Shown here piece by piece: positions 37,497-60,416 of a DNA stretch of 64,000 bases. The DNA comes from an uncultured Methanomassiliicoccus sp. (lineage in GTDB: Archaea > Thermoplasmatota > Thermoplasmata > Methanomassiliicoccales > UBA472). Positions within the stretch are counted from its first letter, which is position 1. Each line of letters begins with the position of its first letter. The stretch is from positions 11,912 through 75,911 of the forward strand of contig CAZPFU010000007.1 of assembly GCA_964585915.1 (NCBI GenBank). Direction: 5' to 3'. The position numbers were made by a program, and so were the translations under genes. Below the pieces are notes generated by a model. That model made no database searches. It had not been told where the DNA came from and was given only the letters and a program-made list of their open reading frames with translations.

Positions 37497-38297
37497 ATGC
37501 GGGACAAGGCCGGGCTGCTGCTTCCGTTTTTCATCATCGCCGTAGCCGAGGCGTTGTACTTCGACGGGTCGGTGGAATCCTGCCTGGGATTGCACGCCCT
37601 CAACATTTTCGTGTGCATACTGGTGCCGATCTGGTCGGAGAAGCGCATGCTCCTGTACCAGTCGTTCGCCCTGGTCTCCCTGCTGCGCGTGCTGAACATA
37701 GGAATGCCGGTGTTCTTCACCGAAACGCTGCTCTGGATGCCTTTCGTTTACGCCCCGATCATCGTGGCCGGCTATATCGTGTGGAGGCAGACGGTGGTGG
37801 ACGCCGGCAAATTGCATTGGCGCAACCTGCTGCGCTTCCTGAACGGACACGGGCTGCGGCCGGACGTCAAATGGAAGTGGGAGTACCTGCTCATCGCCAT
37901 AATATTCGGTTACCTGGTGGCCAACCTGGAGCACTTCGTGCTGGACAACACCGCCTTGGTCAAGGACCTGGGCCCCCTCGACCTGGGCAAGCTGCTCCTG
38001 GTCATGGTGGTCTTCGTCGGCTTCGGCGAGGAGCTGATATTCCGCGGATTGCTGCAGAGCTCGGTGGAGAAGCTGCACGGAGGGTACGTGTCCATAGTCG
38101 TCTCCGCCCTGATGTTCTCCGTCATGCACTCCGGCTATCACAGCGTTCCCTACCTCATCTTCGTCCTGGGGGTCGGGCTGGTGCTTGCCTATGCATACGA
38201 AAGGACCGGCAGCCTTGGTCTGGTCGCCTTGATGCACGGCATACTGAACTTCTTCCTGTTCTCCTTCCTGTCATTCGGCTACGGGCTGCTGCCTTAG
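37497..38297 (+). CDS. CPBP-family intramembrane glutamic endopeptidase (CAAX protease-like)
   Basis: 'GFGEELIFRGLLQ', 'SALMFSVMH', 'HGILNF' motifs. Confidence 0.85.
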   Translation: MRDKAGLLLPFFIIAVAEALYFDGSVESCLGLHALNIFVCILVPIWSEKRMLLYQSFALVSLLRVLNIGMPVFFTETLLWMPFVYAPIIVAGYIVWRQTVVDAGKLHWRNLLRFLNGHGLRPDVKWKWEYLLIAIIFGYLVANLEHFVLDNTALVKDLGPLDLGKLLLVMVVFVGFGEELIFRGLLQSSVEKLHGGYVSIVVSALMFSVMHSGYHSVPYLIFVLGVGLVLAYAYERTGSLGLVALMHGILNFFLFSFLSFGYGLLP

Positions 38298-38458
38298 GCC
38301 GTGAGCGGTCCTTAAAAAATTTTGGCGACCGTCTAGGGACAATAAAGCACGCCTTTGTTGATTTCGAATCATCCCCTTTATTATCGAAGGCGGAATCCTA
38401 CAGCACCCCGGCGATAACAATATCATCGCCGTGGCGAATGTTAACGACGGTGCAAAAG

Positions 38459-39370
38459 ATGAAGCGGGACCTGACCACCATGCTGGACGTCCAGGACGAT
38501 ATACTGGACATATTGGAGACGGCCGAGGAGATGAAGAAGAAGCGGGACCTGGACGACCAACCGCTGAAGGGAAAGGTCCTGGCCATGATATTCGAGAAGT
38601 CCTCCACCCGCACCAGGGTCTCCTTCGAGGTGGGGATGATCGAGCTGGGCGGTTTCGCTGTGACGCTCAACACCAAGGACCTGCAGATGGGCCGCGGAGA
38701 GACCGTGGCGGACACCGCCCGGGTCCTCTCCCGCTATGTCGACGGCATCATGTACCGGGCTTACGAGCACGAGATGGTCATGGAGCTGGCCAAGCATGCA
38801 ACCGTTCCAGTCATCAACGGCCTGGACAACTTCGAACATCCATGCCAGATCATGGCCGACCTGCTTACGGTCAAGGAACATATAGGCAAGCTCAAAGGGA
38901 TCAAGATGGCCTATGTGGGCGACGGCAACAACGTCTGCAACTCGTTGATGCTCGGCTGCGCCATGGTGGGCATGGACCTATCCTGCGGCTGCCCCAAGGG
39001 GTATGAGCCGGATCCCGGAGTGACGAAAAAGGCCAAGGCCATCGCCAAGAAGAACGGCTGCAAGCTCAGCATCGTGGAGTCTCCCAAGGAAGCGGCCAAG
39101 GATGCGGACGTCGTTTACACGGACGTCTGGGTGTCCATGGGCCAGGAGGAGGAGCAGAAGCTGAGGGAGAAGATCTTCAAGCCCTACCAGGTGAACGCGG
39201 ACCTGATGTCCGTGGCGCATAGGAACGCCATAGTCATGCACTGCCTGCCCGCTCACCGGGGAATGGAGATAACCGACGAGGTCATCGACAGCGAGGCGTC
39301 GGTGGTGCTGGACCAGGCGGAGAACCGCCTGCACGCGCAGAAGTCCATCATGGTCGCCCTGATGGGCTGA
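38459..39370 (+). CDS. argF: Ornithine carbamoyltransferase
   Basis: 'FEKSSTRTRVSFE', 'HPCQIMADL', 'HCLPAHRGMEI'. Start 'MKRDLTTMLD' (alternative ATG 38438). The upstream part of track ORF 37613-39370 is a shadow. Confidence 0.93.
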   Translation: MKRDLTTMLDVQDDILDILETAEEMKKKRDLDDQPLKGKVLAMIFEKSSTRTRVSFEVGMIELGGFAVTLNTKDLQMGRGETVADTARVLSRYVDGIMYRAYEHEMVMELAKHATVPVINGLDNFEHPCQIMADLLTVKEHIGKLKGIKMAYVGDGNNVCNSLMLGCAMVGMDLSCGCPKGYEPDPGVTKKAKAIAKKNGCKLSIVESPKEAAKDADVVYTDVWVSMGQEEEQKLREKIFKPYQVNADLMSVAHRNAIVMHCLPAHRGMEITDEVIDSEASVVLDQAENRLHAQKSIMVALMG

Positions 39371-43682: not shown

Positions 43683-43775
43683 GTGGAGTGCATCGTCTGT
43701 GGATGTATCTTGAAGAAGAACCAAGATAAGTGCCCTGTTTGTGGTGCATCCCAAAGTGAGGATGACGATTATTGA
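43683..43775 (+). CDS. Candidate 30-aa zinc-ribbon peptide
   Basis: My translation (GTG start): VECIVCGCILKKNQDKCPVCGASQSEDDDY, with two CxxC knuckles. Overlaps the radical SAM gene start by 14 nt in another frame. Confidence 0.35.
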   Translation: MECIVCGCILKKNQDKCPVCGASQSEDDDY

Positions 43776-44853
43776 TCCGCGGTCGATAGGCGGGATTCGG
43801 CCGGCGCGGTGGGGCTTTTCAGAGGGTACCAGCGTGGCCTGCGGCTTATGCCCTCATCATTGCACCCTGTCCGAGGGCGGTCTGGGGAGGTGCCGGGCCC
43901 GCGGGGTGGTCGATGGAAGGCTGGTCACCTTCAACTACGGACACATACGAGCCCAGGTGGTGGACCAGATCGAGAAGAAGCCTATCTATCACTACCGCCC
44001 CGGCAGCAAGCTCCTGTCCATAGGCACCTTCGGCTGCAATCTTGACTGCGACTGCTGCCAGAACGCCGCCCTGGCATCCTCCGGCCCGTCCGGCAAGGAG
44101 GAGCCGCTGACCTCCCCGGAGGAGGTGGTGGGGTTCGCCCTGTCCAAAGGGGTGCAAGGTATCGCTTTCACCTTCAACGAGCCAGTGGTGTGGAGCGAGT
44201 TCATATTGGATGTCTCAAAGATCGCCAGGACTGGCCGTCTCTACCTCATGATGAACTCCAACGGCTTCGTGGAGGAGGACCCGCTCTCCGAGCTCCTGAA
44301 AGCGGTGGACGCCTTCAAGGTGGACGTCAAGGGCTTCACTGAGGAATTCTATCGGAACAACTGCGGAGGGACCCTCTCTCCGGTATTACGCACATGCAAG
44401 ATGATAAGGGACGTGGGAAAACATCTCGAACTGGCCTATCTAATCATCCCTGGGTTGAACGACGGGAAGGAGGAGATGAACGACTTCTTCGGCTGGGCGG
44501 CAGAACTGGGCAAGGAGGTTCCCCTTCACCTTTACCGTTTCATGCCCGCCCATCGCCTTTCCCATCTCCCGCCCACCGGGATGGGGGCGATGAGGGACGC
44601 CAAGGCATTGGCGGTCTCCCACGGGCTGAAATTCGTTTACCTGAGCGGCATGGTCGAGGGGGACGAACATCAGACCTTCTGCCCCAAATGTCGTTCCCTG
44701 GTCATCAGCAGGGCCGCCAAGGAGGTCTCGGAAAAGGTGGTGTACGAAGGCAGCCGGCTGAGCAAGTTCTGCCCCTCATATTCAGAAATCGATGATCGTA
44801 CCAAAGAAGGCCGATGCCCGTTCTGCGATGAAATTATCTATAAAAGTCCATGA
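43762..44853 (+). CDS. Radical SAM activase, AmmeMemoRadiSam / PflA-like family
   Basis: N-terminal 'CGLCPHHCTLSEGGLGRCRAR' and radical SAM 'GCNLDCDCCQN' (CX3CX2C). C-terminal 'CPKC...CPFC' zinc ribbon. Start ATG 43762 or GTG 43741. Confidence 0.85.
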   Translation: MTIIDPRSIGGIRPARWGFSEGTSVACGLCPHHCTLSEGGLGRCRARGVVDGRLVTFNYGHIRAQVVDQIEKKPIYHYRPGSKLLSIGTFGCNLDCDCCQNAALASSGPSGKEEPLTSPEEVVGFALSKGVQGIAFTFNEPVVWSEFILDVSKIARTGRLYLMMNSNGFVEEDPLSELLKAVDAFKVDVKGFTEEFYRNNCGGTLSPVLRTCKMIRDVGKHLELAYLIIPGLNDGKEEMNDFFGWAAELGKEVPLHLYRFMPAHRLSHLPPTGMGAMRDAKALAVSHGLKFVYLSGMVEGDEHQTFCPKCRSLVISRAAKEVSEKVVYEGSRLSKFCPSYSEIDDRTKEGRCPFCDEIIYKSP

Positions 44854-44898
44854 ATGTAAACGGATTAAACGGCCTTAACGATAGTGCATGGCATGAAC

Positions 44899-44948
44899 GA
44901 ATGGATGTATAATCCATCCATTCAAAACCATATGGATGTTTCATCCAT
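44899..44948. promoter_or_regulatory. Pair of inverted repeats built on ATGGAT/ATCCAT, upstream of the corrinoid protein gene
   Basis: IR1 is GAATGGAT(44899-44906)-N9-ATCCATTC(44916-44923). IR2 is ATGGATG(44932-44938)-TTT-CATCCAT(44942-44948). A TATA-like 'CTTTATTAG' follows at about 44959. Confidence 0.4.
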
Positions 44949-45015
44949 CCATCCAAGGCTTTATTAGTCTAAATTGAAATTTGGACGCAGAAAACATCTT
45001 TGGAGGAAATCTAAA

Positions 45016-45651
45016 ATGGCAAACATGGATCTATTGATTGACATAGTGGTCAAGGGGAGGATCAAGGAAGCTAAGGGGGAGACCCAGAAGCTCCTTGACA
45101 GCGGAGTCTCCGCCAAGGAGATCATCTTCAACGGCTTGAGCAAGGCCATGGAGATCGTCGGTGAGAAGTACGAGAAGAAGGAGTACTTCCTGCCCCAGGT
45201 ATTGCTGTCCGCTCAGACCCTGTACCAGGGACTGAACCTCGCCCTGCCGAAGCTGGACACCGCCTCTGCCGAGGCCGCCGGAAAGATCGTTATCTGCGTG
45301 GTCGAGGGAGATGTGCACGACATCGGCAAGAACATCTGCAAGGCTCTGCTGACCGGCGCTGGGAACACCATGTTCGACCTGGGCCGCGACGTGCCCCTGA
45401 AGGACATCGTGCAGAAGGCCAAGGACGAGAACGCCCAGATCATCGCGACCTCCACCCTGATGACCCCCACCCTGGCGGGCATGAAGGAGATCGAGAAGAT
45501 GCTGGCCGAGGGCGGCCTGAAGGGCAAGATAAAGACCATGGTAGGCGGCGGTGCCACCTCCGCGGACTTTGCCAAGAGCATCGGTGCAGACGGCTGGGGC
45601 TACGACGCCAACGAAGCCGTTCGCGAAGCGATCAGGCTCCTGAAGCACTAA
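45016..45651 (+). CDS. Methyltransferase cognate corrinoid protein (B12-binding, MtaC/MtbC/MttC-like)
   Basis: 'VEGDVHDIGKNI' DxHxxG motif, 'ATSTLMT', 'VGGG'. GGAGG lies 8 nt upstream of the ATG at 45016. Confidence 0.92.
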   Translation: MANMDLLIDIVVKGRIKEAKGETQKLLDSGVSAKEIIFNGLSKAMEIVGEKYEKKEYFLPQVLLSAQTLYQGLNLALPKLDTASAEAAGKIVICVVEGDVHDIGKNICKALLTGAGNTMFDLGRDVPLKDIVQKAKDENAQIIATSTLMTPTLAGMKEIEKMLAEGGLKGKIKTMVGGGATSADFAKSIGADGWGYDANEAVREAIRLLKH

Positions 45652-45680: not shown

Positions 45681-45753
45681 ATGACCCTTTTCTAAAATAT
45701 ACATTTTTATATAATATTATTAGTGCATAATCTTATACCTCTTGGTCATTATT

Positions 45754-46578
45754 ATGCATCGGTGCGAGATGACTGTCAGAGAGGATGCCGTCAGTAAGGA
45801 GATCTTTGAGCTGAAGCAGAAGGTGGAGGAGATGGGACTCGAGCTCCGTTACATAGCCGCCCTGCTGCAGGGCTCGCAATCCCTGGACCTTGGGAGGCCG
45901 GAGATGTTCGAGCTCCTCCGGGACGAGGCGCGACAGAAGGCCGAGATCCGTTTGGATGCCGGCATGGCCAAGAGGTGCGAGATGCGGCCGGAGTGCAGAC
46001 AGAGGTTCATGCAGCTGCTGGACGAGAACCTGAGGCTGCTGGACCGGCCCCGGGTGACCGAGGAGGACCTGGAACGACAGAACGAGAAGCTTGAATCCCT
46101 GAGGTCCCAGGCCATGGCGGGCAGATGCGACGGTTGTTTCAAGGAGGTCGGTTCGCTGTTCCAGGACCAGACCGAGCTGATGCGGCAACTGGGCTTGTAT
46201 CGAAGCAAGGAGGAGATCAGGAACAGCATCGACCTGATGCCGGAGGACGTCATCGTGCGAGACATACTTGAACCGCTATCGAACCCGCAGCGCATGCTGA
46301 TCATGAAAGCGCTGAGCAGGTCCCAGCGCTCCTTCACCGAGCTATCCTCACTGACCAATCTGCGGGGCGGGAACCTGTTGTTCCATCTGCAGAGACTCAC
46401 CGGCACCGGAATGGTGTTCCAGAGAGGCGGCCGCGGCGATTACGCCTTGACTCCGAAAGGGCAGAGCTCGCTGGAGACCGTGAACGACCTTTATATGCGG
46501 ACGAACAATGCCGAGAGGGAGAGAACCGCCTCCGTTGCCAACAGCGGCCGCGTCAGCACGATCTCGAGCTCGGATTGA
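45754..46578 (+). CDS. HTH (ArsR-like) regulator with N-terminal coiled-coil/Cys-containing domain
   Basis: C-terminal 'LSNPQRMLIMKALSRSQRSFTELSSLTNLRGGNLLFHLQRLTGTGMV'. The N-terminal heptad-rich region carries 'CEMRPEC' and 'CDGC'. Confidence 0.7.
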   Translation: MHRCEMTVREDAVSKEIFELKQKVEEMGLELRYIAALLQGSQSLDLGRPEMFELLRDEARQKAEIRLDAGMAKRCEMRPECRQRFMQLLDENLRLLDRPRVTEEDLERQNEKLESLRSQAMAGRCDGCFKEVGSLFQDQTELMRQLGLYRSKEEIRNSIDLMPEDVIVRDILEPLSNPQRMLIMKALSRSQRSFTELSSLTNLRGGNLLFHLQRLTGTGMVFQRGGRGDYALTPKGQSSLETVNDLYMRTNNAERERTASVANSGRVSTISSSD

Positions 46579-46632
46579 ATGCGCAACTTGTATAATCGAT
46601 GAGATAGGTATCATGCAGAACCGGGGGAGTGG

Positions 46633-47997
46633 ATGAAGGGTATATCCAGCCGCACGCTGCAAGGGGTCCTGTTAGGCTGGGCCATAGCTTTCGAGGGCTT
46701 CTTCGCGCTCAGCCTGGCGAACGTGACCAGCATAGACGGCATCGGGACCATCATGGCCTCGACGTTCCGGCTGGCCGCGGTCCAGCTGGCCGCCCTTGGA
46801 GTGTTCATCTCCGCGGTCTGGGCCTTCAAGATGGCCTTCCCCGACCTGGAGAAATCCATCCTCATCAAACTGTTCAACCTTTTAGCCTATCTCGCCATGG
46901 CCGTAGTGGCGGCCGAGGGGATCGCGATGGCGGTGCTCGCCGGCGACATCAGCATAACCGATTTCGGTGGGGTGGGAAAGAAATGGGTCGTCCTGGTCGG
47001 CGCCCAGCTATTCGCCGTCGGCCTGATCTCCCTGCGCCTTTGGAGGCTCCGCAACGTCACGCCGGAGAACTGGCTGACCGATTCATCAGGTCAGGCATCC
47101 GCCGCGCTCATCGCCCTGGAAGGTTTGGTCGCCTACGGCATCGCCGGCACCACCCGGGTGATCGGCATCGCCGGCTTTCAGGAGAGCACCATCGCCAACG
47201 GCGGCCTCCTGTTGATGGCCATCGGTCTTTCCATGTTCATTCTGTGGACCTTGCCCTATGATCCCTGGTTATCGCTCAAGCTCCCAAAGAAGCTCATGCG
47301 ATGGCCGAGCATGTTGGCGATGACCGTTCTGGGCGGGACCATCGCCGCCGGCTGCGTCTTCGCCACCTATCACGTCGGACCGGTGGACGTGGAAGGCGTG
47401 GGCAGCGTGAGCAAGATCGTGGTGGTCGCCGGGGTCTCCCAGCTCTTCGCCCTAGGTCTGGCCGCGCCCATGCTCTGGAAGGTTCGCAAGGAGCCGTTCG
47501 ACCGTAAGTACCTGGGCGTGCTGATGGTCACCTTGGCCCTCTCCCTGCTGGCGTTGGAAGGGGTGTTCGCCATGGCCTTGGCCGCCAACACCTATATCGA
47601 AGGATTGGGCGGGATACTGGAAAGCACCTTCCGCCTGGCCGGCGCCCAGCTTCTGGTCCTATCGTTGATCGCCATCTTCGCCTGGCTGGTCAAGGACAGC
47701 CCTCTGCTGTCCACATGGCCCAAGCGCATAATGTCCTCGGCGTTCCTGGTCGCCGCGGCGACGATCGCCCTGGAAGGTCTGGCGGTCATCCTGATGGCCG
47801 TGAACATCCGCATCGACGGGTTCAGCGGAGTGGGGGAGAGGTACGTCCTGCTAGGCGGCCTGCAGATGGCGCTTCTCGCCTCCATCGCCCTGGTGTTCTG
47901 GGCCAGGACCAGGGGCATCACATCGAATTTCAGGTTGGCCGGTACCGCGGCCGCGGCCTTCGTGGTCCTCCTGGTGCCCATCGCCCTGTTGTTGTGA
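46633..47997 (+). CDS. Polytopic membrane protein made of six ~72-aa two-helix repeats (unknown family)
   Basis: Repeats are anchored on the (A/L)EG motif at aa 21, 95, 163, 309 and 381, with a degenerate copy near aa 234. Each contains '..I.G.GG....F.L.G.QL..L.L....W'. Confidence 0.8.
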   Translation: MKGISSRTLQGVLLGWAIAFEGFFALSLANVTSIDGIGTIMASTFRLAAVQLAALGVFISAVWAFKMAFPDLEKSILIKLFNLLAYLAMAVVAAEGIAMAVLAGDISITDFGGVGKKWVVLVGAQLFAVGLISLRLWRLRNVTPENWLTDSSGQASAALIALEGLVAYGIAGTTRVIGIAGFQESTIANGGLLLMAIGLSMFILWTLPYDPWLSLKLPKKLMRWPSMLAMTVLGGTIAAGCVFATYHVGPVDVEGVGSVSKIVVVAGVSQLFALGLAAPMLWKVRKEPFDRKYLGVLMVTLALSLLALEGVFAMALAANTYIEGLGGILESTFRLAGAQLLVLSLIAIFAWLVKDSPLLSTWPKRIMSSAFLVAAATIALEGLAVILMAVNIRIDGFSGVGERYVLLGGLQMALLASIALVFWARTRGITSNFRLAGTAAAAFVVLLVPIALLL

Positions 47998-50172: not shown

Positions 50173-51216
50173 ATGTTGTTCGGGGCTTTGCAGAGCGGCA
50201 TCGACGGTTTGATCGAATACGTTTCACAGCACACCTTGACCTGTCTGATACCGGCGTTCTTCATCGCCGGGGCGATCGCGGCCTTCGTCAAGAAGGAGGC
50301 CATCCTGAAGTACTTCGGGCCGCAGACCAAGAAGTACGTATCTTACCCGGTAGCCTCGATCTCCGGCCTGGTGCTGGCGGTCTGCAGCTGCACCATACTT
50401 CCCCTGTTCACCGGGATCTATAAAAAAGGAAGCGGTCTCGGTCCGGCGGTGACGTTCCTGTTCGCCGGCCCGGGCATCAACATACTGGCTATCATATATA
50501 CCGCCCAGGTGTTGGGTTACGACATCGGGATCGCCCGGGCGGTCGCCGCCATAGGCATGTCATTGCTGGTCGGTCTGATCATGGCGACGCTGTTCCGCGG
50601 AGAGAAGCATATGGGCGAGTTCAAGCTTCTCTCCAGCGGCGGGGACAAGCCCAAATGGGTCATCCTCAGCTTCTTCCTCCTCCTGGGCCTCATACTGGTC
50701 ATCGGCGCCTCCCAGCTGGATTGGCTGGTGAAGCTGCCCATCGTTTACGCCTTGACGTTGGTGGTGGCCTACCTTGCGATATACCATTTCGAGAGGGATG
50801 AGATCACTGACTGGGGAATGGAGACCTGGGACCTGACCAAGAAAATATTACCGATATTGCTCATAGGAACGTTCGCGGTCGGGGTTCTCGCCTATTTCCT
50901 GCCACCGGAGACCTTCGCCCCATACCTGGGGAACAACTCGATCTCAGCGAACCTCATAGCATCCGTACTGGGGGCCATCCTTTACATGCCGACCTTGCTC
51001 GAGGTGCCTATAATCGGCACCACGTTCGGATACACCACCGGAGCGATGGCCGCCGGTCCGGCTCTAGCGCTACTTCTGGCTGGTCCGACGATAAGCGCTC
51101 CTTCCCTAGTGGTGTTGGCCCGGGTCATGGGTGTGAAGAAGACGCTGACCTATGCGGTCCTAGTTGTGATCATGTCCACCATCGCCGGAATGATCTTCGG
51201 ATCATTGGTCGGGTGA
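50173..51216 (+). CDS. DUF318/ArsP-like permease
   Basis: 347 aa, about 8-10 TM segments, 'LAVCSCTILPLF' Cys pair in a TM segment. Followed by a thioredoxin-like gene, the usual partner of this family. Confidence 0.8.
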   Translation: MLFGALQSGIDGLIEYVSQHTLTCLIPAFFIAGAIAAFVKKEAILKYFGPQTKKYVSYPVASISGLVLAVCSCTILPLFTGIYKKGSGLGPAVTFLFAGPGINILAIIYTAQVLGYDIGIARAVAAIGMSLLVGLIMATLFRGEKHMGEFKLLSSGGDKPKWVILSFFLLLGLILVIGASQLDWLVKLPIVYALTLVVAYLAIYHFERDEITDWGMETWDLTKKILPILLIGTFAVGVLAYFLPPETFAPYLGNNSISANLIASVLGAILYMPTLLEVPIIGTTFGYTTGAMAAGPALALLLAGPTISAPSLVVLARVMGVKKTLTYAVLVVIMSTIAGMIFGSLVG

Positions 51217-51268
51217 TCTGGATGACAAATTGATAGTTCGTTAAACACAATGAGGACAAGTGAGAACG

Positions 51269-51502
51269 ATGAGGATAGAGGTGTTCGGTACTGGGTGCGC
51301 CAAGTGTAAAAGGCTTGAGAAGAACGTCCATGAAGCATTGGCCAAGAGCGGGATCAAAGCGGAAGTGATCAAGATCGAGGACATCGACGCCATAACCGAC
51401 CGCGGTATCATGGTCACCCCGGCGTTGGCCATCGACGGTGATGTAAAACTGATGGGCAAGGTACCCTCGGTCGATGAATTGGTAGAATTTTTCAGGGCGT
51501 GA
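51269..51502 (+). CDS. Thioredoxin-fold 'redox-active disulfide protein 2'-like protein
   Basis: 'MRIEVFGTGCAKCKRL...TPALAIDGDVKLMGKVPS', 77 aa. Confidence 0.8.
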   Translation: MRIEVFGTGCAKCKRLEKNVHEALAKSGIKAEVIKIEDIDAITDRGIMVTPALAIDGDVKLMGKVPSVDELVEFFRA

Positions 51503-51909
51503 CGGACATGGAGGAGATAAAGTGTTCCTGCCAGGGCGGAACGGTCATCATGTACTCCTGCTCAGGTAACGCCAACCTGGGCCAGGCCTGCAATGAGCTG
51601 GCACAGCGGCTCATGGAGCGGGGTGTGGGAAGAATGGGCTGCCTGGCCGGCGTGGGTGGGCATGTGCCGAACATGGTCCTTTCAGCCCAGAGCGCGGACG
51701 AGATCATCGTCCTCGACGGATGTCAGATGGGCTGTGCTTTGAAGATTATGGAGCACGCCGGGGCCAAGGCATCCGTTCATCTGGTGGCCACCGAGATCGG
51801 TCTGGTCAAGAAGAACGGCAAGAGGTGGACAGAGGACGAGGTCCAGGCGATGGACGAGGCCCTAGCTCAACTCAGACCTTCTCGAAACGGGTTCGTACGA
51901 ATCGAGTGA
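51499..51909 (+). CDS. DGC-domain (putative metal-binding) protein
   Basis: 'YSCSGNANLGQ' and 'VLDGCQMGCALK' (DGC motif). The GTG start overlaps the preceding TGA; the alternative is ATG 51508. Confidence 0.7.
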   Translation: MTDMEEIKCSCQGGTVIMYSCSGNANLGQACNELAQRLMERGVGRMGCLAGVGGHVPNMVLSAQSADEIIVLDGCQMGCALKIMEHAGAKASVHLVATEIGLVKKNGKRWTEDEVQAMDEALAQLRPSRNGFVRIE

Positions 51910-52285
51910 TGTCCTCCCTGGCCTGACGGAAGGCAGCAAGCCTTTCATCATGATCGCCTTCCACAGCTGACGGGTCTGGGAGACCGGCATGCTCATGGTC
52001 CTTGGCCCCGGAAAAGAACGGGCATATCTCGTTCGCCCCGTCGCATACCGTGACGGCCAGGTCGAACCTCTCGTTCTTGAACTCGTCCAGGTGCTTGGAC
52101 CGGTTCCCGGAGATGTCTATCCCCAGCTCGGACATCACCTCGATGGCCAGATGGTGAACAGTTCCTGGTCTGGTGCCCGCGCTTCGGGCCTCCACCCGTC
52201 CGGAGAAGAGCGAGTTGGCAATTCCTTCGGCCATCTGACTCCGGGCCGAGTTGTGGGTGCAGATGAAAAGAACGCGGTAGGTCAT
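51872..52285 (-). CDS. arsC: Arsenate reductase (LMW-PTPase family)
   Basis: 'VLFICTHNSARSQMAEG' CX5R P-loop, 137 aa. Confidence 0.9.
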   Translation of the reverse strand: MTYRVLFICTHNSARSQMAEGIANSLFSGRVEARSAGTRPGTVHHLAIEVMSELGIDISGNRSKHLDEFKNERFDLAVTVCDGANEICPFFSGAKDHEHAGLPDPSAVEGDHDERLAAFRQAREDITRFVRTRFEKV

Positions 52286-52345
52286 GGTATCCTATTACGA
52301 AAAGCAAAGTATTTCAATATATTTTGAACTATCTCCTATTAGAGC

Positions 52346-53437
52346 GTGAGACCTCTGACCGAGCAGACCGCCAAGCTGTCTTTCCTCAACAAATTCCTGA
52401 CCGTCTGGATATTCCTAGCCATGGCCTTAGGGGTTGGACTCGGCATCACCATTCCCGGGCTGGCCGAAGCTCTTGATTCCTTAAGCGTAGGCACCACCTC
52501 CATCCCAATCGCCATTGGGCTGATCTTGATGATGTTCCCGCCTTTGGCCAAAGTACGATACGAGGACCTGCCCAAGATCACCGGGATGCCCGAAACCAAG
52601 AGGATGTTCTCCGTCTCGCTTTTGCTCAACTATCTGGTCGGTCCAATGCTCATGTTCGCCCTGGCCTGGATTTTCCTGCCCGACCTTCCGGAATACCGCA
52701 TCGGTCTCATCCTAACCGGCATTGCCCGCTGCATTGCCATGGTCCTGGTCTGGAACCAACTGGCAAAGGGGGATTCAGAGTACGCCGCCGTACTTGTGGC
52801 CTTGAACTCCCTATTTCAGATCGTCCTGTACGCTTTCTACGCTTACTTCCTGGTCTTCATGCTCTCCGACGCCCTCGTACCCGGTTCGGGCGTGCAGGTG
52901 GACATCACTATGGTGGAGGTCGCCATCACCGTGCTGATCTATCTGGGGATACCCTTCTTCGGAGGGATGCTCACCAGGTACGCCCTCCGGAAGCGCAAAG
53001 GGGCGGAATGGTACGACGGGCGGTTCTTGCCGGTCACGGGCAAGGTATCGCTGCTCGCCCTCCTATTCACCATCATGATCATGTTCTCTCTGAAAGGCGA
53101 GTACCTGGTGCAGCTGCCTCTGGACGTTGTGCGCATCGCCATACCTCTGTTGATCTACTTCCTGACGATGTTCCTCCTCTCCTTCTATCTCTCCATAAAG
53201 TTGCGTTTCGATTATCAGCATGCCGCGGCGCAATCGTTCACCGCCTCCTCCAACAACTTCGAGCTGGCCATTGCCGTGGCCATCGGAGTGTTCGGGATCG
53301 GATCAGGAGTGGCCTTCGCCGCGGTGGTAGGGCCTCTGGTGGAGGTCCCGGTGTTGATAAGCCTAGTCAATATGTCGCTGTGGTTCAAGGGACAGTACTT
53401 CGACCAGGATGGAAAAATAAAGAAAAAGAAAGGATAA
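52346..53437 (+). CDS. acr3: Arsenite efflux transporter, ACR3 family
   Basis: 363 aa, 10 TM segments. '[16 protein letters not shown]', '[13 protein letters not shown]' (conserved Cys), '[12 protein letters not shown]'. Confidence 0.92.
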
Positions 53438-53455: not shown

Positions 53456-54481
53456 TTAGCCCTTGACGGCCTTGACCACGGCGGCCAGGTTGTCGTCGGA
53501 TATGAGGGCGGACAGCCCGCATCCCGGGGAGATCACGTCGAAACCGGCGGCCACGCAGCGCTTGGCATGGGCCATGCAGTCCGCGGGGGTTCCCTGCAGC
53601 AGCGGGTTGACGACGCCGATGTTCCCGATCAGGGCGGCGCGCTTGTTGACGATCTTGACGCCCTCTTCCGGAACGACCTTCTCCTCGATGGACAGGGCCT
53701 TGCATCCGGTCTTGATCATGTTGTCCAGGATGTCGGTGGTGTTGCCGCAGATGTGCAGAACGCCAGTGGCTCCCTTGACCGGGGCCAGCGAGTCAGCCAG
53801 GTAGGCACCCGCGTACTCGTTGAACATGTCAGGGGAGAGCAGGTCGGTGCTGGCGGACGGCTCGGACATCTGAACGACGTCGGCTCCGGCGTCAGCCAAT
53901 GCCTGGCTGTATCCCTTGCATATCACGTTGGCGGCCTTGGTCCACTTGTGCACCAGGTCCGGGTCGACCATGATGTACAGCACGAGGTTCTCGGTGCTGA
54001 CCAGGTGACCGGCCAAGGTGAACGGTCCGGTGTTGCCGGCGATGACCGGGTACTCGGCGCCGAACTGGGCCTTCATCTTCTTTATGGCTTGCTGGCAGAT
54101 GGCCGCGCGGCCGCTCTTCAAGAACTCATCGACCGACATCAGGGCGGGGTCGTCCTCGAGGGCGAAGGGGTGTCCCTTCACCATCGGGGTCCTGTCCTTG
54201 CGGCCCTGCTCGACGGTGGTGACCTTCAGGCTGTCTATCTCGGCGGTCAGGCAGAACGGGGCCCTAACGGCCTCGAACCCGAACACCTTGGCCTGCCCGG
54301 ATCCCAGCTTGACCATCTTGTCAACGTCGTAGTGGGCTTCCGGCCAGGAAACACCGAGCTTGTCCATCTGTCCCATGGTTGCGCTCTGGGTGAACACGGC
54401 GACCGGCGGCCGGTCGTGCTGCTTTCCCTTCAACGCATCCAACACTCTGTCCCTTGGAGTCAATTTTTCAGACAAATTCAT
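53456..54481 (-). CDS. Methylcobamide:CoM methyltransferase (MtaA/MtbA, URO-D family)
   Basis: 'RVLDALKGKQHDRPPV', 'HICGNTT' and 'ISPGCGLS' Zn ligands. 341 aa. Confidence 0.9.
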   Translation of the reverse strand: MNLSEKLTPRDRVLDALKGKQHDRPPVAVFTQSATMGQMDKLGVSWPEAHYDVDKMVKLGSGQAKVFGFEAVRAPFCLTAEIDSLKVTTVEQGRKDRTPMVKGHPFALEDDPALMSVDEFLKSGRAAICQQAIKKMKAQFGAEYPVIAGNTGPFTLAGHLVSTENLVLYIMVDPDLVHKWTKAANVICKGYSQALADAGADVVQMSEPSASTDLLSPDMFNEYAGAYLADSLAPVKGATGVLHICGNTTDILDNMIKTGCKALSIEEKVVPEEGVKIVNKRAALIGNIGVVNPLLQGTPADCMAHAKRCVAAGFDVISPGCGLSALISDDNLAAVVKAVKG

Positions 54482-54648
54482 TCCCCCTATAATCCAGTAG
54501 GATTCTGACCTGTTCCGAGTATCTTATTTTCCGTACATTAATCTATCGGGTATGGATGCGAACGCAGCATCCTTTAACAGTAGTTGAAAATATTCTCCTG
54601 GCTCGACCGCTAACAGGTGAAACGATTGTAAAAAATCTTAACAAACGT

Positions 54649-55701
54649 TCAACCATCGGACGGCATACCGGTTGCGCACCTCGCCGTCGCCTCGCGCAGG
54701 GCGATGATGTTCTCCACCGGGGTCTTGAAGGCCATCTCGCATCCCGGGGCGATCATGTATCCCGGACCGCCGCCCCAATCTTTCATCATCGCTTTGACCT
54801 CGTCCGCCACCTGCCCCGGGGTGCCTTTGAAGAGGAGGAACGTCTGATCAATCCCGCCTATCATAGTGGTTCTGGAACGGAACTTGTCGTAGATCTCCTT
54901 GCGGTCCATGGCCTTGGGGGTGAGATGCAAACCCTCCATCGTCATTTTCAGATAGCCGTCCAGGTAAGGGTTCGCCGCGCAATTGTGGACGATGGACCTT
55001 ATACCGTTAGAACGGAAGGAGGATAGGAGCTTGGCAAGATACCCCAGGTCGAACCTTTCCAGCCCCTCGATGGAGTTGACGTCCGGCGAACAGGTGCCGT
55101 CCTCTATGAACACATAACCGACGCCCGATCCAGAAAGGTGCTCGCCGTACATGCGAGATGATTCAATGATGCGGTCCATAAGCTGGGCGGCCAGGTCAGG
55201 CTCGGACCAGGTGGACATGAGCAGATTCTCGTAACCCATGACCTCCCCGCTCATCATCACCGGTCCGTTTATGCAGCCGACCACCGCCACCTCGTTGCCG
55301 TGGCGTTCCTGCAGCAGCCCCGCGGCCCTGAGCGGAACGGACCAGAACTCGTCCTTCATCGGATCGACCGGTTGCACCTTGTCAAGTTCCTCCAACGAAG
55401 ATATGGCGTAGCCGTCCGCTCTCGGATAATAGTCCTTCTCCGGCCACCTCCACCTGGTGCCGTGAGCCCTGGCCTCCACCAGGATGTCGCCCCAGCCGGC
55501 CATGACGTTGTCGAAGCCGGTTATCCTCTGGGCCATGAGGCAGATCTTGGCGAACTTCTCCGGGTCGTGGAAACCCTCCCGCATGGTGAGCCCGGCGGCG
55601 TTCAGAACGGTGCGGGCGGCGCCCAGGTGCTGGTACATGATCGGCGGTCGGTCGTAAGGCGTCCTCTCGAAGGCCGCTTCGAACCTCTCACGCGGGAACA
55701 T
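54649..55701 (-). CDS. Divergent URO-D/MtaA-family methyltransferase
   Basis: 'YDRPPIMY', 'HNCA' and 'APGCE' retain the His/Cys/Cys Zn ligand pattern. By eye it aligns poorly with the adjacent MtaA outside these motifs. Confidence 0.8.
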   Translation of the reverse strand: MFPRERFEAAFERTPYDRPPIMYQHLGAARTVLNAAGLTMREGFHDPEKFAKICLMAQRITGFDNVMAGWGDILVEARAHGTRWRWPEKDYYPRADGYAISSLEELDKVQPVDPMKDEFWSVPLRAAGLLQERHGNEVAVVGCINGPVMMSGEVMGYENLLMSTWSEPDLAAQLMDRIIESSRMYGEHLSGSGVGYVFIEDGTCSPDVNSIEGLERFDLGYLAKLLSSFRSNGIRSIVHNCAANPYLDGYLKMTMEGLHLTPKAMDRKEIYDKFRSRTTMIGGIDQTFLLFKGTPGQVADEVKAMMKDWGGGPGYMIAPGCEMAFKTPVENIIALREATARCATGMPSDG

Positions 55702-55741
55702 GCGCCCTAATGCGCATGCGTTTTAGATATCCTTTACCTGT

Positions 55742-56194
55742 TCAATCCTTGATGCGTTTCTCCTTCTCATAGAAGTCGTTGATCACTTCGTAATCGATGC
55801 CGTGCTCGGCCATGAACCCCTTGGTGTACTCCAGCGACGTCTCGCGGACCTGGGGGTCCCACATGCCGTGCACTATGACGTGGACGATGAGCTCCCCGCG
55901 CATCATCTTGCTGCCGTCGAAGCGGTTCTGCACCGTCGGCGGGATGTCCATATCGATCAGGCTCACCGATATAGTGGAACCGCCCTCAGCGGTCAGGAAG
56001 GACTTGATGTGCCCGATCATGTCCGCCCCTTTGGCGAAGCACTCCTTGGTGATGCCGTTCATCAGGTCCAGGACCATCCTCTCGGACCGTTCCCCGTCCA
56101 AGGGTTCCCTGATGTAGAGCCGCAACCACATGGAGAACTTGCCCAGCTCGTCAGACGCCCGGTGGGTGAGCAGCTGCCTTTCCTTCTGGTCCAT
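55742..56194 (-). CDS. Hypothetical protein, possible stand-alone CobW_C-like domain
   Basis: 150 aa from 'MDQKERQLL'. Starts 4 nt after the COG0523 GTPase gene stop. 'IGHIKSFL...ELIVHVIVHGM' loosely resembles CobW C-terminal domain strands. Confidence 0.5.
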   Translation of the reverse strand: MDQKERQLLTHRASDELGKFSMWLRLYIREPLDGERSERMVLDLMNGITKECFAKGADMIGHIKSFLTAEGGSTISVSLIDMDIPPTVQNRFDGSKMMRGELIVHVIVHGMWDPQVRETSLEYTKGFMAEHGIDYEVINDFYEKEKRIKD

Positions 56195-56198
56195 CCCC

Positions 56199-56864
56199 TC
56201 ACTCCCCGTACTTCTTGTCGAAGCGTTCCTCGGCGTCCGAAAGGTCGTACACCACCGCCTTGCCTTGCACCATGAGGTCGGCAACCTCCTTGATGCCCTG
56301 CCCGGTCCGCGAGGAGCCATAGTACAGGCGCACCTCCGGGTTGAGGCCTCTGACCATCTCGGTGACGTGATGCAGGCGCTCCTCGTTCACCGCGTCTACC
56401 TTGTTGATGAGGACCGCATCGGCCTCGATGATCTGGGTCTCGACGAGCCGCCGAACATTGTTCATGAGCTTGTCGATGCGTATGGCGTCCACGAAGGTGA
56501 CTATCGGCGACTGCTCCAGGATCCTGGGCATCTTCTTGACCGTCTCCGCCGCGGCCTGCTTGAGTCCGAGGGGGATAGCCACACCGGTCGGCTCCACCAG
56601 GATCACGTCCGGCCTGTAGCTCATGTAGATGTTGGTCACCGTGGTGGTGAGGGTTCCCTGCACCTCGCAGCATATGCACCCGCCGGAGATCTCCATGGTG
56701 TCGATGCCGTGCACCTCCATGCACTTTCGGTCAACGTTGATGTGGCCCACGTCGTTCACGATGGTGGCCACCTTGAGCCCGCGGGAGTTCAGCTCCTTGG
56801 CCACCTCGATCAGGAAGGTGGTCTTGCCGCTCCCCAAGAAACCAGTTACCTGGGCGATCCTCAT
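56199..56864 (-). CDS. COG0523 (CobW/YjiA/ZigA-type) G3E GTPase domain only
   Basis: 'GFLGSGKTTFL' P-loop, 'GGCICCEV' CxCC metal motif, 'LINKVD'. Only 221 aa and lacks the usual C-terminal domain. Confidence 0.85.
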   Translation of the reverse strand: MRIAQVTGFLGSGKTTFLIEVAKELNSRGLKVATIVNDVGHINVDRKCMEVHGIDTMEISGGCICCEVQGTLTTTVTNIYMSYRPDVILVEPTGVAIPLGLKQAAAETVKKMPRILEQSPIVTFVDAIRIDKLMNNVRRLVETQIIEADAVLINKVDAVNEERLHHVTEMVRGLNPEVRLYYGSSRTGQGIKEVADLMVQGKAVVYDLSDAEERFDKKYGE

Positions 56865-57031
56865 GCAATCACGCTAGCGGCGTTAAGGGTCTTCCGAGTA
56901 TAATTTCATTGTCCCGTGAGCGGTCCGGACGGGGACGCCGCCGGTCGCAGGCTGGACGACCCTTCGTAGGGTGTGAAGAACGGGAACAGTATTATAAATC
57001 CGACGATGGCATTCTCCCCTCGAGGTTATCC

Positions 57032-58690
57032 ATGGCATTGGGAGTCGCGCTGGATTTGGGAACTAGCGGTTACCGGGGGCACCTGGTAGATCTGGACAAG
57101 AAGGGCAAGATCCTGGCTACGGCCATCACCATGAGGCACCCGCTTCCCGGGGCCAACATCATGGACCATCTGCATTTCTGGATGGAGAACGGTCCTGAGG
57201 TCGGGCACCGCATCGTCATCGAGACGGTCGACAAGCTGATCGAGACCTTGGGGGCCAAGCCCGAGGAGATCAACCGCGTTTCCGTATGCGGAAACCCGGC
57301 CCAGATGTCCATGTTCGAAAAGATCGAGATACGCGACCTGGCCTTCGCCGGCCAATCCATCCTGAAGCGCCTTAACGTCAAGGTCCCGGAGCGCAAGGCC
57401 CATTCCATCAAGGCCGAGGAGCTCGGCATGAGGTCGGTCAAGCGCACCGCGGAGGTCCGAATCCCACCGTCGATACGCCACGAGATCGGCGCGGACGCCC
57501 TGGCCATGATCATGAAGACCGGGCTCATGGACAAGAAGGAGACCTGCATGGTGACCGACTACGGCACCAACGCCGAGATGGGCCTGTTCTACAAGGGCGA
57601 GCTGTACACCGGCTCCGCCGCCGCCGGTCCGGCCATGGAAGGCCAATCGATCGACTTCGGCATGCTCGCCGCACCGCAGGCGATCTCCGACATCGTGCTC
57701 GGGGATAACGGCAAATGGTACAACCTGGTGCTCAACGAAAAGCTGCACCCGGTCAAGTCCGCCCTGGTCGACCCGCGCAGCGGGGACGAGCAGCGCCTGG
57801 ACGGCGTCGTCGCCCGCGGTATCACCGGCACCGGCACCGTGGCCGCCATGGCCATCGGCCTGGAGACCGGAGTGATCAGGCTGCCGTACGTGGACACCCC
57901 AGACCGCAAGATACATCTCACCAATGGGATCACCTTCAGCGAGGAGGACGTACGCGAGGCCGGCAAGGCCACCGGGGCCATCCGCGCCGGGCACCGCACC
58001 CTCATCGAGGAGGTCGGGGTGGACGACACGGAGATCAAGACCATGTACATGGCCGGCGCGTCCGGTACGTACGTGGACCCGATCAAAGCGCAGACCGTGG
58101 GACTAATACCCAGGGTCCTGGAGAAGACCGTGCAGGCCGGGAACACCTCCCTCATGATGTCCTACGACATCCTGGTGGACGATGACGGCCTGGACAAGAT
58201 GCAGGACGTGGCCAACGCCATCTCCAGCAAGCACATAATGTTCGCCACCAGCAAGGTCTTCGAGGACATCTACGTCAACGAGATTGCCTACTGGACCGAG
58301 GGCATGAGCATGGAGATGTATAACGACATGGTCAAGTACGCCGGGCTGCGCCCGCTTCCGGATATAGTTCGTCCCAAGGAAGTGGTCCGCCTGGTGATGT
58401 CGGATATCCCGGTCATCGGCGCTCGGGGACTGAAGACCCTGGACGATGTGGGCGTGTACCTCATGGGCTCCTTCGAGGGATGCATCGGCTGCAAGAAGTG
58501 CCAGAGGGAGTGCCCGGAATGCGCCCTGCAGGTGTCCACGCTCGGGGATAAGAAGGACAAGAAGTGGCTGATAAGGGTGAACACCGAACACTGCCTGGGA
58601 ACGGCCTGCAAGAAATGCCAGTCCATATGTCCGGAGGGCGTGTACGACTTCAGCGCCCTGAAGATCGTCAAGAAGGGAGCGGACGTTTAG
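57032..58690 (+). CDS. ramA: Corrinoid protein reductive activase (RamA family)
   Basis: ASKHA-like 'VALDLGTSGYRGHLVD' N-terminus. The C-terminus has two ferredoxin motifs, 'CIGCKKCQRECP' and 'CLGTACKKCQSICP'. Start 'MALGV' at 57032. Confidence 0.88.
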   Translation: MALGVALDLGTSGYRGHLVDLDKKGKILATAITMRHPLPGANIMDHLHFWMENGPEVGHRIVIETVDKLIETLGAKPEEINRVSVCGNPAQMSMFEKIEIRDLAFAGQSILKRLNVKVPERKAHSIKAEELGMRSVKRTAEVRIPPSIRHEIGADALAMIMKTGLMDKKETCMVTDYGTNAEMGLFYKGELYTGSAAAGPAMEGQSIDFGMLAAPQAISDIVLGDNGKWYNLVLNEKLHPVKSALVDPRSGDEQRLDGVVARGITGTGTVAAMAIGLETGVIRLPYVDTPDRKIHLTNGITFSEEDVREAGKATGAIRAGHRTLIEEVGVDDTEIKTMYMAGASGTYVDPIKAQTVGLIPRVLEKTVQAGNTSLMMSYDILVDDDGLDKMQDVANAISSKHIMFATSKVFEDIYVNEIAYWTEGMSMEMYNDMVKYAGLRPLPDIVRPKEVVRLVMSDIPVIGARGLKTLDDVGVYLMGSFEGCIGCKKCQRECPECALQVSTLGDKKDKKWLIRVNTEHCLGTACKKCQSICPEGVYDFSALKIVKKGADV

Positions 58691-59536
58691 TTGCGGCTCA
58701 CCTGCCTGGTGGATGATAATTCAGGCACCTCAAACCCCTTATCGTCCATTTCCAAGGCGCCCGGCAATTTCCTCGCCGAGCACGGTCTTTCCCTTCTGAT
58801 CGAGACCGACCAGGGAAAGAAGGTGCTGCTGGACACAGGTTCCTCGGAAGAGGCGTTCCTGCACAACCTCGGCCTGGTCGGCCTGAGGCCCAAGGACATC
58901 GACCTGGTGTTCATCTCCCACGGCCACTACGACCATCTAGGCGCCCTGCCTCTTCTCGTGCGGGAAGGCGTCCCGGTTCACACGCATCCCCTGACCTTTC
59001 AAGGCCGTCGCTTCGTCGAGGCCTCCGGGGTAAGGAAGGAGATAGGGCCTTCCGCCGAGCTGCTCTCCCTTCTTAAAACAAGCCCGCCGGTGTATGACGA
59101 CAAACCCCGGGAGCTGGTGAGCGGGATCAGCACCACCGGGGAGGTGTTCAGAAGGACGGACTTCGAAAGGCCGGCATCCTTCCTCATCGAAAGGGAGGGC
59201 GAGGTGTCCACCGACCTCATCATGGAGGAGCAGGCGCTGTGCCTGTCCACCAGGAACGGGCTGGTGGTGCTCACCGGCTGCGGTCATCCTGGCATAGTGA
59301 ACATCCTCACCCAGGTGGGCATGCACACCGGTCGCAGGTTGCTCATGGCCGCCGGAGGGTTCCACCTGTGGAAGGCGGATGCCGAGGTCCTGCTGAAGAC
59401 CTTGGAAGGGGTGCGGCGGGCGGGAGTGGAAAAGGTGGCTCCGATGCACTGCTCCGGGTTCACCGCCACCAAGCTCTTTTCGGACCGCTTCCCCGGTTTC
59501 CTGCTCTTGGGAACCGGTTGCTCCATGGAGCTATAG
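58691..59536 (+). CDS. MBL-fold protein of the DHPS-like family (MJ0301-type, archaeal dihydropteroate-synthase analogue family)
   Basis: 'LVDDNSG...LAEHGLSLLIE...VLLDTGSS...FISHGHYDHLGAL'. The TTG start is the codon immediately after the ramA TAG. Confidence 0.8.
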   Translation: MRLTCLVDDNSGTSNPLSSISKAPGNFLAEHGLSLLIETDQGKKVLLDTGSSEEAFLHNLGLVGLRPKDIDLVFISHGHYDHLGALPLLVREGVPVHTHPLTFQGRRFVEASGVRKEIGPSAELLSLLKTSPPVYDDKPRELVSGISTTGEVFRRTDFERPASFLIEREGEVSTDLIMEEQALCLSTRNGLVVLTGCGHPGIVNILTQVGMHTGRRLLMAAGGFHLWKADAEVLLKTLEGVRRAGVEKVAPMHCSGFTATKLFSDRFPGFLLLGTGCSMEL

Positions 59537-60415: not shown

Positions 60416-60416
60416 G

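Follow-up and report, generated by a model that had tools for sequence, protein, structure and literature searches.

A modular tandem-repeat membrane protein family of Methanomassiliicoccales, built from paired two-helix units and with a possible role in the cell envelope

Introduction

To our knowledge, few membrane proteins have more than three internal repeats, and families in which the number of repeats varies from member to member are rarer still. Several described systems offer points of comparison. Archaeal A-type ATPases have duplicated, triplicated and 13-fold c/K subunits, and such multiplied proteolipid subunits of the A-/V-type ATPases hold tandem two-helix hairpins of ~70-80 amino acids in one polypeptide, with a copy number that varies by lineage, a membrane-embedded carboxylate and Gln, and Gly/Ala packing faces. 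Trk/Ktr/HKT transporters and K+ channels arrange repeated two-helix units around a Gly-containing loop, in a four-unit form. Soluble alpha-solenoids (14-3-3, ankyrin/TPR-like and designed helical repeats) chain helical hairpins in variable number, possibly with a terminal cap. Small carriers with four transmembrane (TM) helices, GtrA and ArnE/F, sit beside glycosyltransferase family 2 (GT2) enzymes in the gtrA-gtrB arrangement, and transporters of the major facilitator superfamily (MFS) type have 12 TM helices. Here, we describe a gene whose product shares some features with each of these systems. It lies in a stretch of 64,000 nucleotides from an uncultured Methanomassiliicoccus sp. (contig CAZPFU010000007.1, forward strand; hereafter, the window), and its product is a repetitive membrane protein of 454 amino acids.

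The differences are as informative as the likenesses. Unlike the c subunit, which has its carboxylate in the second helix and its polar loop in the cytoplasm, the repeat family has its Glu in the first helix and a Gly-rich beta-hairpin loop predicted to face outward; it also has dispensable Glu-Gln pairs between units, one additional C-terminal helix, no ATPase context, and no sequence relationship to c subunits. Compared with Trk/Ktr/HKT transporters and K+ channels, its loop lacks the length needed for a pore helix and filter, it is built of unit pairs with 2-, 6- and 8-unit forms in addition to the four-unit one, and it has no family match. Alpha-solenoids are water-soluble, whereas the repeat family has TM helices, and the structural similarity (Foldseek TM-score ≤ 0.37, E > 0.9) is not significant. 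GtrA-like and SMR-like (ArnE/F) carriers resemble the family in placing a four-TM module beside sugar-nucleotide and GT2 genes (loci L025, L017, and L019, described below), but they are single 4-TM proteins without beta-hairpins, Glu-Gln clamps, or tandem multiplication, and they share no sequence match with it. MFS-type transporters have a similar number of TM helices and a similar overall size, but they consist of 6+6 repeats rather than three four-helix modules plus one helix, with Foldseek TM-scores ≤ 0.22 and no Pfam or NCBIfam match for the repeat protein. As shown below, covariation alone reveals the rule by which the family is built: two buried Glu-Gln pairs cross between the units of a four-helix module and lock it together.

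Results

Six tandem two-helix units and a closing helix

The open reading frame (ORF) in question is a real gene and encodes a 13-helix membrane protein. Its position and the signals in front of it are as follows.

46633..47997, + strand: gene for the 454-residue, 13-TM repeat protein (from the ORF list), with an ATG start and a stop codon at 47995-47997
46623..46629, + strand: Shine-Dalgarno-like GGGGGAG, 3 nt before the ATG (direct sequence reading)
46589..46596, + strand: TATA-like box tgtataat, ~40 bp upstream, in the 54-bp gap 3' of a helix-turn-helix (HTH) gene (direct sequence reading); possibly the gene's own promoter

Full-length orthologues with 45-99 % identity are found in 13 GTDB species, in about 50 protein clusters, and their length is kept at 443-464 amino acids across the 13 species.

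Cut at residues 1, 75, 143, 216, 290, 362, and 434, the protein yields six tandem units of 68-74 amino acids and, after them, a 13th helix; the units can be aligned across about 72 columns. Each of the 15 pairs of units exceeded composition-preserving shuffles (200 shuffles; Smith-Waterman z = 3.4 to 14.6), and for 13 of the 15 the score was never reached by any shuffle. Profiles specific to each unit, made from 33 orthologues, also matched each other in all 15 pairs (hhalign E = 4.6e-6 to 5.1e-19). A hidden Markov model (HMM) of the unit found six domains in the ORF, with E from 1e-21 to 6e-25 each, and no match elsewhere in the six-frame translation of the window. At the DNA level, Tandem Repeats Finder reported no tandem repeat in the gene, in which only short stretches are roughly 65-75 % identical. 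Since the repeat is seen in the protein and not in the DNA, the duplication is old.

The elementary unit of ~72 amino acids consists of a TM helix, a Gly-rich beta-hairpin of 12-14 residues (I-x-G-x-G-G-I), and a second TM helix. Its consensus reads A-x-E-G in the first helix (TM1), A-G-x3-I-x-G-x-G-G-I-x3-T in the hairpin, and L-x-G-x-Q-L-x2-L-G-x6-W in the second helix (TM2); the TM segments are 21-27 residues long. An AlphaFold2 model of the six-unit protein, based on 36 family sequences, had a predicted local distance difference test (pLDDT) of 83 and a predicted TM-score (pTM) of 0.83, with 13 long helices; those of units 1 and 2 span residues 6-29, 42-68, 76-101, and 116-138. In five of the six units, the model connects the two helices by a three-residue strand, a turn, and another strand; the loop of unit 1 was modeled at low confidence without strands. 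The model of a four-unit paralogue (56 sequences; pLDDT 85, pTM 0.87) also consisted of helix, beta-hairpin, helix units.

These results agree well with a preliminary description of the gene, which had been made by reading the letters and translation and had proposed six tandem two-helix repeats with 12-13 TM helices. The shuffle z-scores, the hhalign E-values, and the unit HMM bear out the repeats, and the modeled helices number 13. The anchors it gave for the recurring unit are the Glu or Gly of the A-x-E-G motif (E21, E95, E163, G234, E309, and E381), and the strings it quoted occur verbatim in the protein at residues 19-63 and 307-351. An archaeal source of the DNA is likewise supported.

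A four-helix module clamped by crossed Glu-Gln pairs

The units are not all equivalent. Mean hhalign scores were 84 for odd-odd, 72 for even-even, and 50 for odd-even pairs, and across the family, fixed columns differ by parity; column 44, for example, is T in 72 of 95 odd units and T, Y, or W in even ones. We refer to odd units as A and even units as B. Hierarchical clustering of the pairwise scores did not separate the two types, and the alternation is visible only in parity statistics, in specific columns, and in covariation.

Each unit has a position for a conserved buried Glu in TM1 (profile column 21) and a Gln in TM2 (column 51). Within an odd-even pair, the Gln of A is associated with the Glu of B (counts 18, 7 / 1, 69; odds ratio 177, P = 7.5e-13), and the Glu of A with the Gln of B (counts 13, 9 / 2, 71; odds ratio 51, P = 1.2e-8). 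Glu and Gln were not associated inside one unit (P = 0.27 and 0.17), nor did they covary from one module to another (P = 1). In an unbiased scan of all column pairs by mutual information with average product correction (346 modules, effective number of sequences 195), these two Glu-Gln pairs ranked first and second. Next came G22-G49, G15-G56, and A25-V45, as expected for antiparallel packing of TM1 against TM2. Joint losses of Glu and Gln occur in many lineages and in modules 1, 2, and 3, and in some members Glu is replaced by Gln, giving Gln-Gln pairs.

Because Glu and Gln covary only across the odd-even pair, the building block is the four-helix A-B module, here present three times. From the covariation and the secondary structure, we infer that the module runs up-down-up-down and is held by two crossed Glu-Gln pairs. 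The window protein is divided as follows.

46633..47058, + strand: A-B module 1, units 1-2, residues 1-142, TM1-TM4; clamps E21-Q125 and Q51-E95 both present
47059..47499, + strand: A-B module 2, units 3-4, residues 143-289, TM5-TM8; clamp E163-Q270 kept, the other lost on both sides (L194/G234)
47500..47931, + strand: A-B module 3, units 5-6, residues 290-433, TM9-TM12; clamps E309-Q411 and Q339-E381 both present
47932..47994, + strand: 13th, C-terminal TM helix, residues 434-454, '...AAAAFVVLLVPIALLL'; the closing helix, ending L-x-P-x-A-x-L; residues 431-453 in the AlphaFold2 model

Five of the six possible Glu-Gln pairs are thus present. The second clamp of module 2 is also jointly lost in the relatives P0026 and P0032, and P0041 and P0046 retain its Gln and Glu. 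Closure into a ring, with the Gln of the last unit pairing with the Glu of the first, had no support, as 88 % of proteins keep the Glu of unit 1 and the Gln of the last unit is often lost. Gly38 and Thr44 in the hairpin of unit A showed a modest association with the pair formed by A Gln and B Glu (P = 0.003 and 0.006, in 16 tests), so a coupling of the hairpin to this pair is suggestive only.

These data either show directly or strongly indicate that the architecture is modular and that the Glu-Gln pairs have a structural role. They also refine the six-fold duplication that had been proposed for this protein. The six two-helix repeats stand; a flat six-fold duplication or a six-fold symmetric bundle does not, because odd and even units differ. 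The accompanying view of the protein as a transporter was an assumption, as no transporter family or fold matches and the Glu-Gln residues act as structural pairs.

The distribution of charge predicts the orientation. Linkers between units contain 344 Lys and Arg vs 122 Asp and Glu, and hairpins contain 197 vs 245. For the window protein itself, the count of Lys and Arg is 12 in the inner loops and two in the hairpins. The basic linkers are therefore predicted to be cytoplasmic, and the hairpins and C-terminus to lie outside.

A family with even numbers of units

An exhaustive HMMER search of 1.84 billion representative proteins with the unit profile gave 75 matches at E ≤ 0.001, although a few of the weakest probably fall outside the family. 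A further ~50 orthologue clusters and over 100 four-unit paralogues came from word-indexed searches. Full-length members have 2, 4, 6, or 8 units, corresponding to about 170, 300, 454, and 605 amino acids, and only even numbers occur; four-unit forms are the commonest. Apparent counts of three in the 300-residue group are due to one divergent unit below threshold, and matches with a single unit look like fragments. Several genomes carry both a six-unit protein and a four-unit paralogue.

A conserved closing helix with the L-x-P-x-A-x-L end ('...LLVPIALLL' in the window protein) is found in most 2-, 4-, 6-, and 8-unit relatives. It is absent from the 147-residue two-unit proteins whose genes lie directly upstream of a four-unit gene. 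Such a tandem of a 147-residue two-unit gene and a four-unit gene occupies loci L021 and L022, where L001 has a six-unit gene. The relevant coordinates within these loci are:

L021, 7357-8948: split family genes, two-unit plus four-unit
L022, 7356-8957: split family genes, two-unit plus four-unit
L025, 4478-5353 and 8001-8519: family genes, one four-unit and one two-unit

Judged by eye, the four-unit protein P0059 (L022) resembles the six-unit protein P0051 (L001) minus an internal pair, and its unit 2 mixes features of units 2 and 4 of P0051. This comparison suggests that copy number may have been altered by unequal recombination between repeats. One further relative, P0086 (788 amino acids, on a single 5-kb ENA contig), has three units fused to a Cys/Thr-rich, beta-rich domain of ~550 amino acids that looks extracellular. 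Its odd unit number and predicted topology are at odds with the rest of the family, and it may be a real fusion or else a chimera produced by misassembly or a frameshift.

The window protein has each hallmark of what we call the (A-B)n family: the unit profile in tandem, an even number of alternating units, crossed Glu-Gln pairs, and the closing helix. Our literature search found no description of such a family, and the preliminary description had not recognized one either. Pfam and NCBIfam scans gave no match for the window protein, and scans at E ≤ 1 that covered 39 members (the window protein and 38 diverse relatives) yielded nothing beyond sporadic noise in single members. A sequence search of the PDB with the unit, six-unit, and four-unit profiles returned nothing below E 0.09. 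Foldseek against the PDB found no significant neighbor for the six-unit model (best E 0.23, TM-score ≤ 0.25) or for the four-unit model (best TM-score 0.37, E > 0.9), for which the weak top matches include soluble alpha-solenoids and designed repeat proteins. We conclude that the family and its predicted fold are new.

Paralogues near glycan genes

Loci with other members of the family suggest a link to the cell envelope. In four other paralogue groups, a DUF1616 gene is found no more than 8 kb from the family member; an Rce1-like gene usually accompanies it, and glycosyltransferase or sugar-nucleotide genes are always nearby. The DUF1616-linked paralogues, and the corresponding genes in the window, are:

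L001: six-unit paralogue
L017 and L019: eight-unit paralogue
L021 and L022: two-unit plus four-unit paralogues
L024 and L025: four-unit and two-unit paralogues
Window, 62399-63391, - strand: DUF1616 gene, 14 kb downstream of the repeat gene
Window, 37497-38297, + strand: Rce1-like CPBP protease gene, 8 kb upstream of the repeat gene

Several of the paralogues in these DUF1616/glycan loci are co-directional with their neighbors at short gaps. The two-unit member of L025 (four TM helices plus closing helix) is directly upstream of genes for UDP-GlcNAc 2-epimerase, GT2, and DUF1616, and the eight-unit member of L017 and L019 is directly downstream of UDP-glucose dehydrogenase and sugar-nucleotidyl transferase genes. 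A DUF1616 protein of Haloferax is an N-glycosylated membrane protein (PMC8241124), and M. luminyensis has no prominent cell-wall-like structure (PMC4153887).

The DUF1616 and Rce1-like genes form a divergent pair beside family members in several other loci. In the window, the listed ORF at 37613-39370, which overlaps the Rce1-like gene, is an over-extended ornithine/aspartate carbamoyltransferase ORF.

Neighborhood of the gene in the window

Upstream of the repeat gene, on the same strand, are genes for an AmmeMemoRadiSam-type radical S-adenosylmethionine (SAM) protein, a methyltransferase-type corrinoid protein, and an ArsR-type HTH protein. Downstream, again on the same strand, are a hydantoinase-A-like gene, an arsenic-resistance island, and genes for two MtaA-like proteins, CobW, RACo, an MtrH-like, and an MtrA-like protein.

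43741-45651 and 53456-61190: corrinoid-methyltransferase supercluster, with no obvious substrate:corrinoid methyltransferase
45742-46578: 278-residue HTH protein; its long helical N-terminal domain carries the Cys pairs CEMRPEC and CDGC, and its C-terminal part is an ArsR-type winged helix
48050-50017: 655-residue hydantoinase-A/ASKHA-family protein with weak MutL/GlmL-like N-terminal matches
50173-53437: arsenic-resistance island, between the hydantoinase-like gene and the two MtaA-like genes, made up of the next five genes
50173-51216: ArsP_1-type permease
51260-51502: thioredoxin-like CxxC protein
51499-51909: DGC-domain protein
51872-52285, - strand: LMW-PTP/ArsC-like gene
52346-53437: ACR3

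The supercluster consists of the AmmeMemoRadiSam-type radical SAM, corrinoid protein, two MtaA-like, CobW, RACo/RamA, metallo-beta-lactamase-fold, MtrH-like, and MtrA-like genes, and the C-terminal membrane anchor usual for MtrA is missing from its MtrA-like product. The 278-residue HTH protein, with 55-84 % identity, is the second fastest-evolving of the block after the repeat protein and may be a metal or redox sensor. The 655-residue protein is always encoded directly downstream of the repeat gene and is 74-91 % conserved; it could be a putative ATP-dependent corrinoid chaperone or reactivase. The ArsP_1-type permease, ACR3, and the upstream radical SAM gene vary in presence among the syntenic genomes.

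The repeat protein is the fastest-evolving gene product of the syntenic block. Between genomes, its identity is 45-53 %, compared with 78-83 % for the ArsP-type permease, 78-82 % for ACR3, 88-93 % for the corrinoid protein, and 74-83 % for the hydantoinase-like protein.

Discussion

The best overall explanation of these observations, to which we assign a probability of about 0.5, combines the modular architecture with a role as an envelope scaffold or carrier. Two slightly different units, A and B, very probably pack as an up-down-up-down four-helix module, in which faces of small residues (Ala and Gly) join the two helices of each unit and two crossed hydrogen-bonded pairs link the Glu in TM1 of one unit with the Gln in TM2 of the other. 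Modules are chained one to four times (three times here) and nearly always closed by the extra C-terminal helix, and the chain may form an extended array of membrane-embedded helical hairpins whose outer face bears a row of small beta-hairpins. Such an array might serve the cell envelope as a scaffold, or else as a carrier tied to surface-glycan biogenesis.

With low confidence, we regard the function as that of an envelope-associated modular scaffold or carrier rather than a classical alternating-access transporter. This is favored because of the variable length of the proteins, their fast and evenly spread divergence, the occurrence of several paralogues in one genome, polar pairs that can be dispensed with, and the glycan loci.

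A number of points weigh against this explanation. The functional part draws on two sources, gene neighborhood and evolutionary rate, and our confidence in it is accordingly low. Two paralogue groups are found in other surroundings: that of L018, L020, and L024 lies between Nitro_FeMo-Co and ParA/SufBD genes, with no glycan neighborhood at the gene itself, and that of L023 lies among housekeeping genes, with no glycan neighborhood. (Within 1-8 kb there are GT4 glycosyltransferases at L018 and a DUF1616/GT2 block at L024.) The order of corrinoid protein, HTH, repeat gene, and hydantoinase-like gene is kept in 13 of 13 species and could reflect a real functional link of the repeat gene with its corrinoid neighbors. 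The outer hairpins do not exceed the helices in variability (column identity 0.71 vs 0.69), and therefore there is no signature of an exposed arms-race surface. Every member with an organism name comes from Methanomassiliicoccales, and most members are without one. On the structural side, the covariation counts carry no phylogenetic correction, though the events are spread over lineages and positions. The AlphaFold2 alignments were shallow, at 36 and 56 sequences, and repeat proteins may be modeled with too much confidence; the module geometry is drawn from covariation and secondary structure, not from the AlphaFold2 coordinates.

A bolder version of the same idea is possible, though doubtful. 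The family might represent a new fold, an intramembrane 'solenoid' of Glu-Gln-clamped modules with a cap helix, lengthened or shortened in two-unit steps over a range of 5 to 17 TM helices, and it might act in Methanomassiliicoccales as an envelope scaffold or as a missing carrier of lipid-linked sugars.

Of the rival explanations, the strongest is that the protein is a permease or channel of the neighboring corrinoid methyltransferase system, moving a methylated substrate, a corrinoid, or a metal, with the buried Glu residues as binding or coupling sites. The conserved gene order in all 13 species, on one strand and with gaps of 52-54 bp, speaks for it, as do the two MtaA-like, CobW, RACo, MtrH-like, and MtrA-like genes downstream and the about 13 TM helices with their conserved intramembrane Glu. 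However, the entire 20-kb block is equally syntenic, including ornithine carbamoyltransferase (OTCase), DHH, and RNase H genes. Since these unrelated housekeeping genes upstream are kept just as well, synteny with the corrinoid genes is uninformative, and adjacency adds no weight. There are TATA-like boxes in both gaps flanking the repeat gene, and in ten loci with other paralogues, no homologues of the HTH, hydantoinase-like, or corrinoid proteins were present. The Glu and Gln are dispensable if lost together, and Glu can become Gln. The protein also evolves far faster than ArsP and ACR3 at the same loci, its relatives range from two to eight units, and no transporter family or fold matches it. 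We consider this explanation unlikely, and the adjacency to corrinoid-methyltransferase genes most likely reflects conserved gene order and not shared function.

A flippase-like translocator for lipid-linked sugars, in which a four-TM module analogous to GtrA or ArnE/F beside a GT2 enzyme would have been multiplied, is a second candidate, which we rate as quite unlikely. The two-unit member beside UDP-GlcNAc 2-epimerase, GT2, and DUF1616 genes in L025, the eight-unit member beside UDP-glucose dehydrogenase in L017 and L019, and the members inside glycosyltransferase clusters in L001, L021, and L022 all fit it. Against this, the 39 members gave no GtrA (PF04138), SMR (PF00893), or other Pfam match at E ≤ 1, and multiplication to 13-17 TM helices has no known precedent among such carriers. 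The family consensus shows no conserved basic or aromatic residues fit for a phosphate or sugar head group, and the gene in the window is itself outside any glycan cluster.

The multiplied c/K subunits invite the idea of a proteolipid-like, ion-binding ring with a carboxylate in each tandem two-helix hairpin. Hairpins of ~70-75 amino acids in variable copy number, Gly-rich packing faces, and a conserved Glu and Gln at equal membrane depth would be in keeping with it. We hold it to be very improbable, and it is largely refuted by profile matching, carboxylate helix, loop orientation, and carboxylate loss. No ATP-synt_C (PF00137) match appeared at E ≤ 1 in the 39 members, and hhalign of the unit profile with the c subunits of E. 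coli and I. tartaricus gave probabilities ≤ 1 %. The position of the Glu in the first helix and the predicted outward direction of the acidic Gly-rich hairpin are the opposite of those in c subunits, the Glu-Gln pairs are freely lost, and no ATPase genes are in the context.

It is more improbable still that the family is K+-channel- or Trk/Ktr/HKT-like with its G-x-G-G loops as selectivity filters, as two TM helices around a Gly-rich loop and the prevalence of four-unit forms might suggest. Loop length largely refutes this: the loop has 12-14 residues and is modeled as a surface beta-hairpin without a pore helix, whereas a re-entrant pore loop needs ~25 residues or more. No Pfam channel or TrkH match was found, hhalign with KcsA gave a probability of 0.4 %, and the six-unit form and the A-B module are unfit for a four-fold pore. 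Finally, an artifact, with repeats arising by chance from hydrophobic low-complexity composition or an ORF that is not a gene, could appeal to the GC-rich region with its many spurious overlapping ORFs and to the biased composition of TM segments, but it is already refuted to the point of being barely conceivable, as composition-preserving shuffles failed to reach the scores, profile-profile E-values went down to 5e-19, the full length is conserved in 13 species, and the covariation is position-specific.

Conclusions

A modular architecture with an envelope-associated role as scaffold or carrier is thus the explanation we prefer. Methanomassiliicoccales are methyl-reducing methanogens of guts, digesters, and sediments, and their envelope and lipid biology is poorly understood. 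The family described here offers a clear natural case of a membrane protein constructed from modules, possibly with a new fold, and the presence of several of its paralogues in surface-glycan loci makes it a concrete candidate for an envelope function in these organisms.

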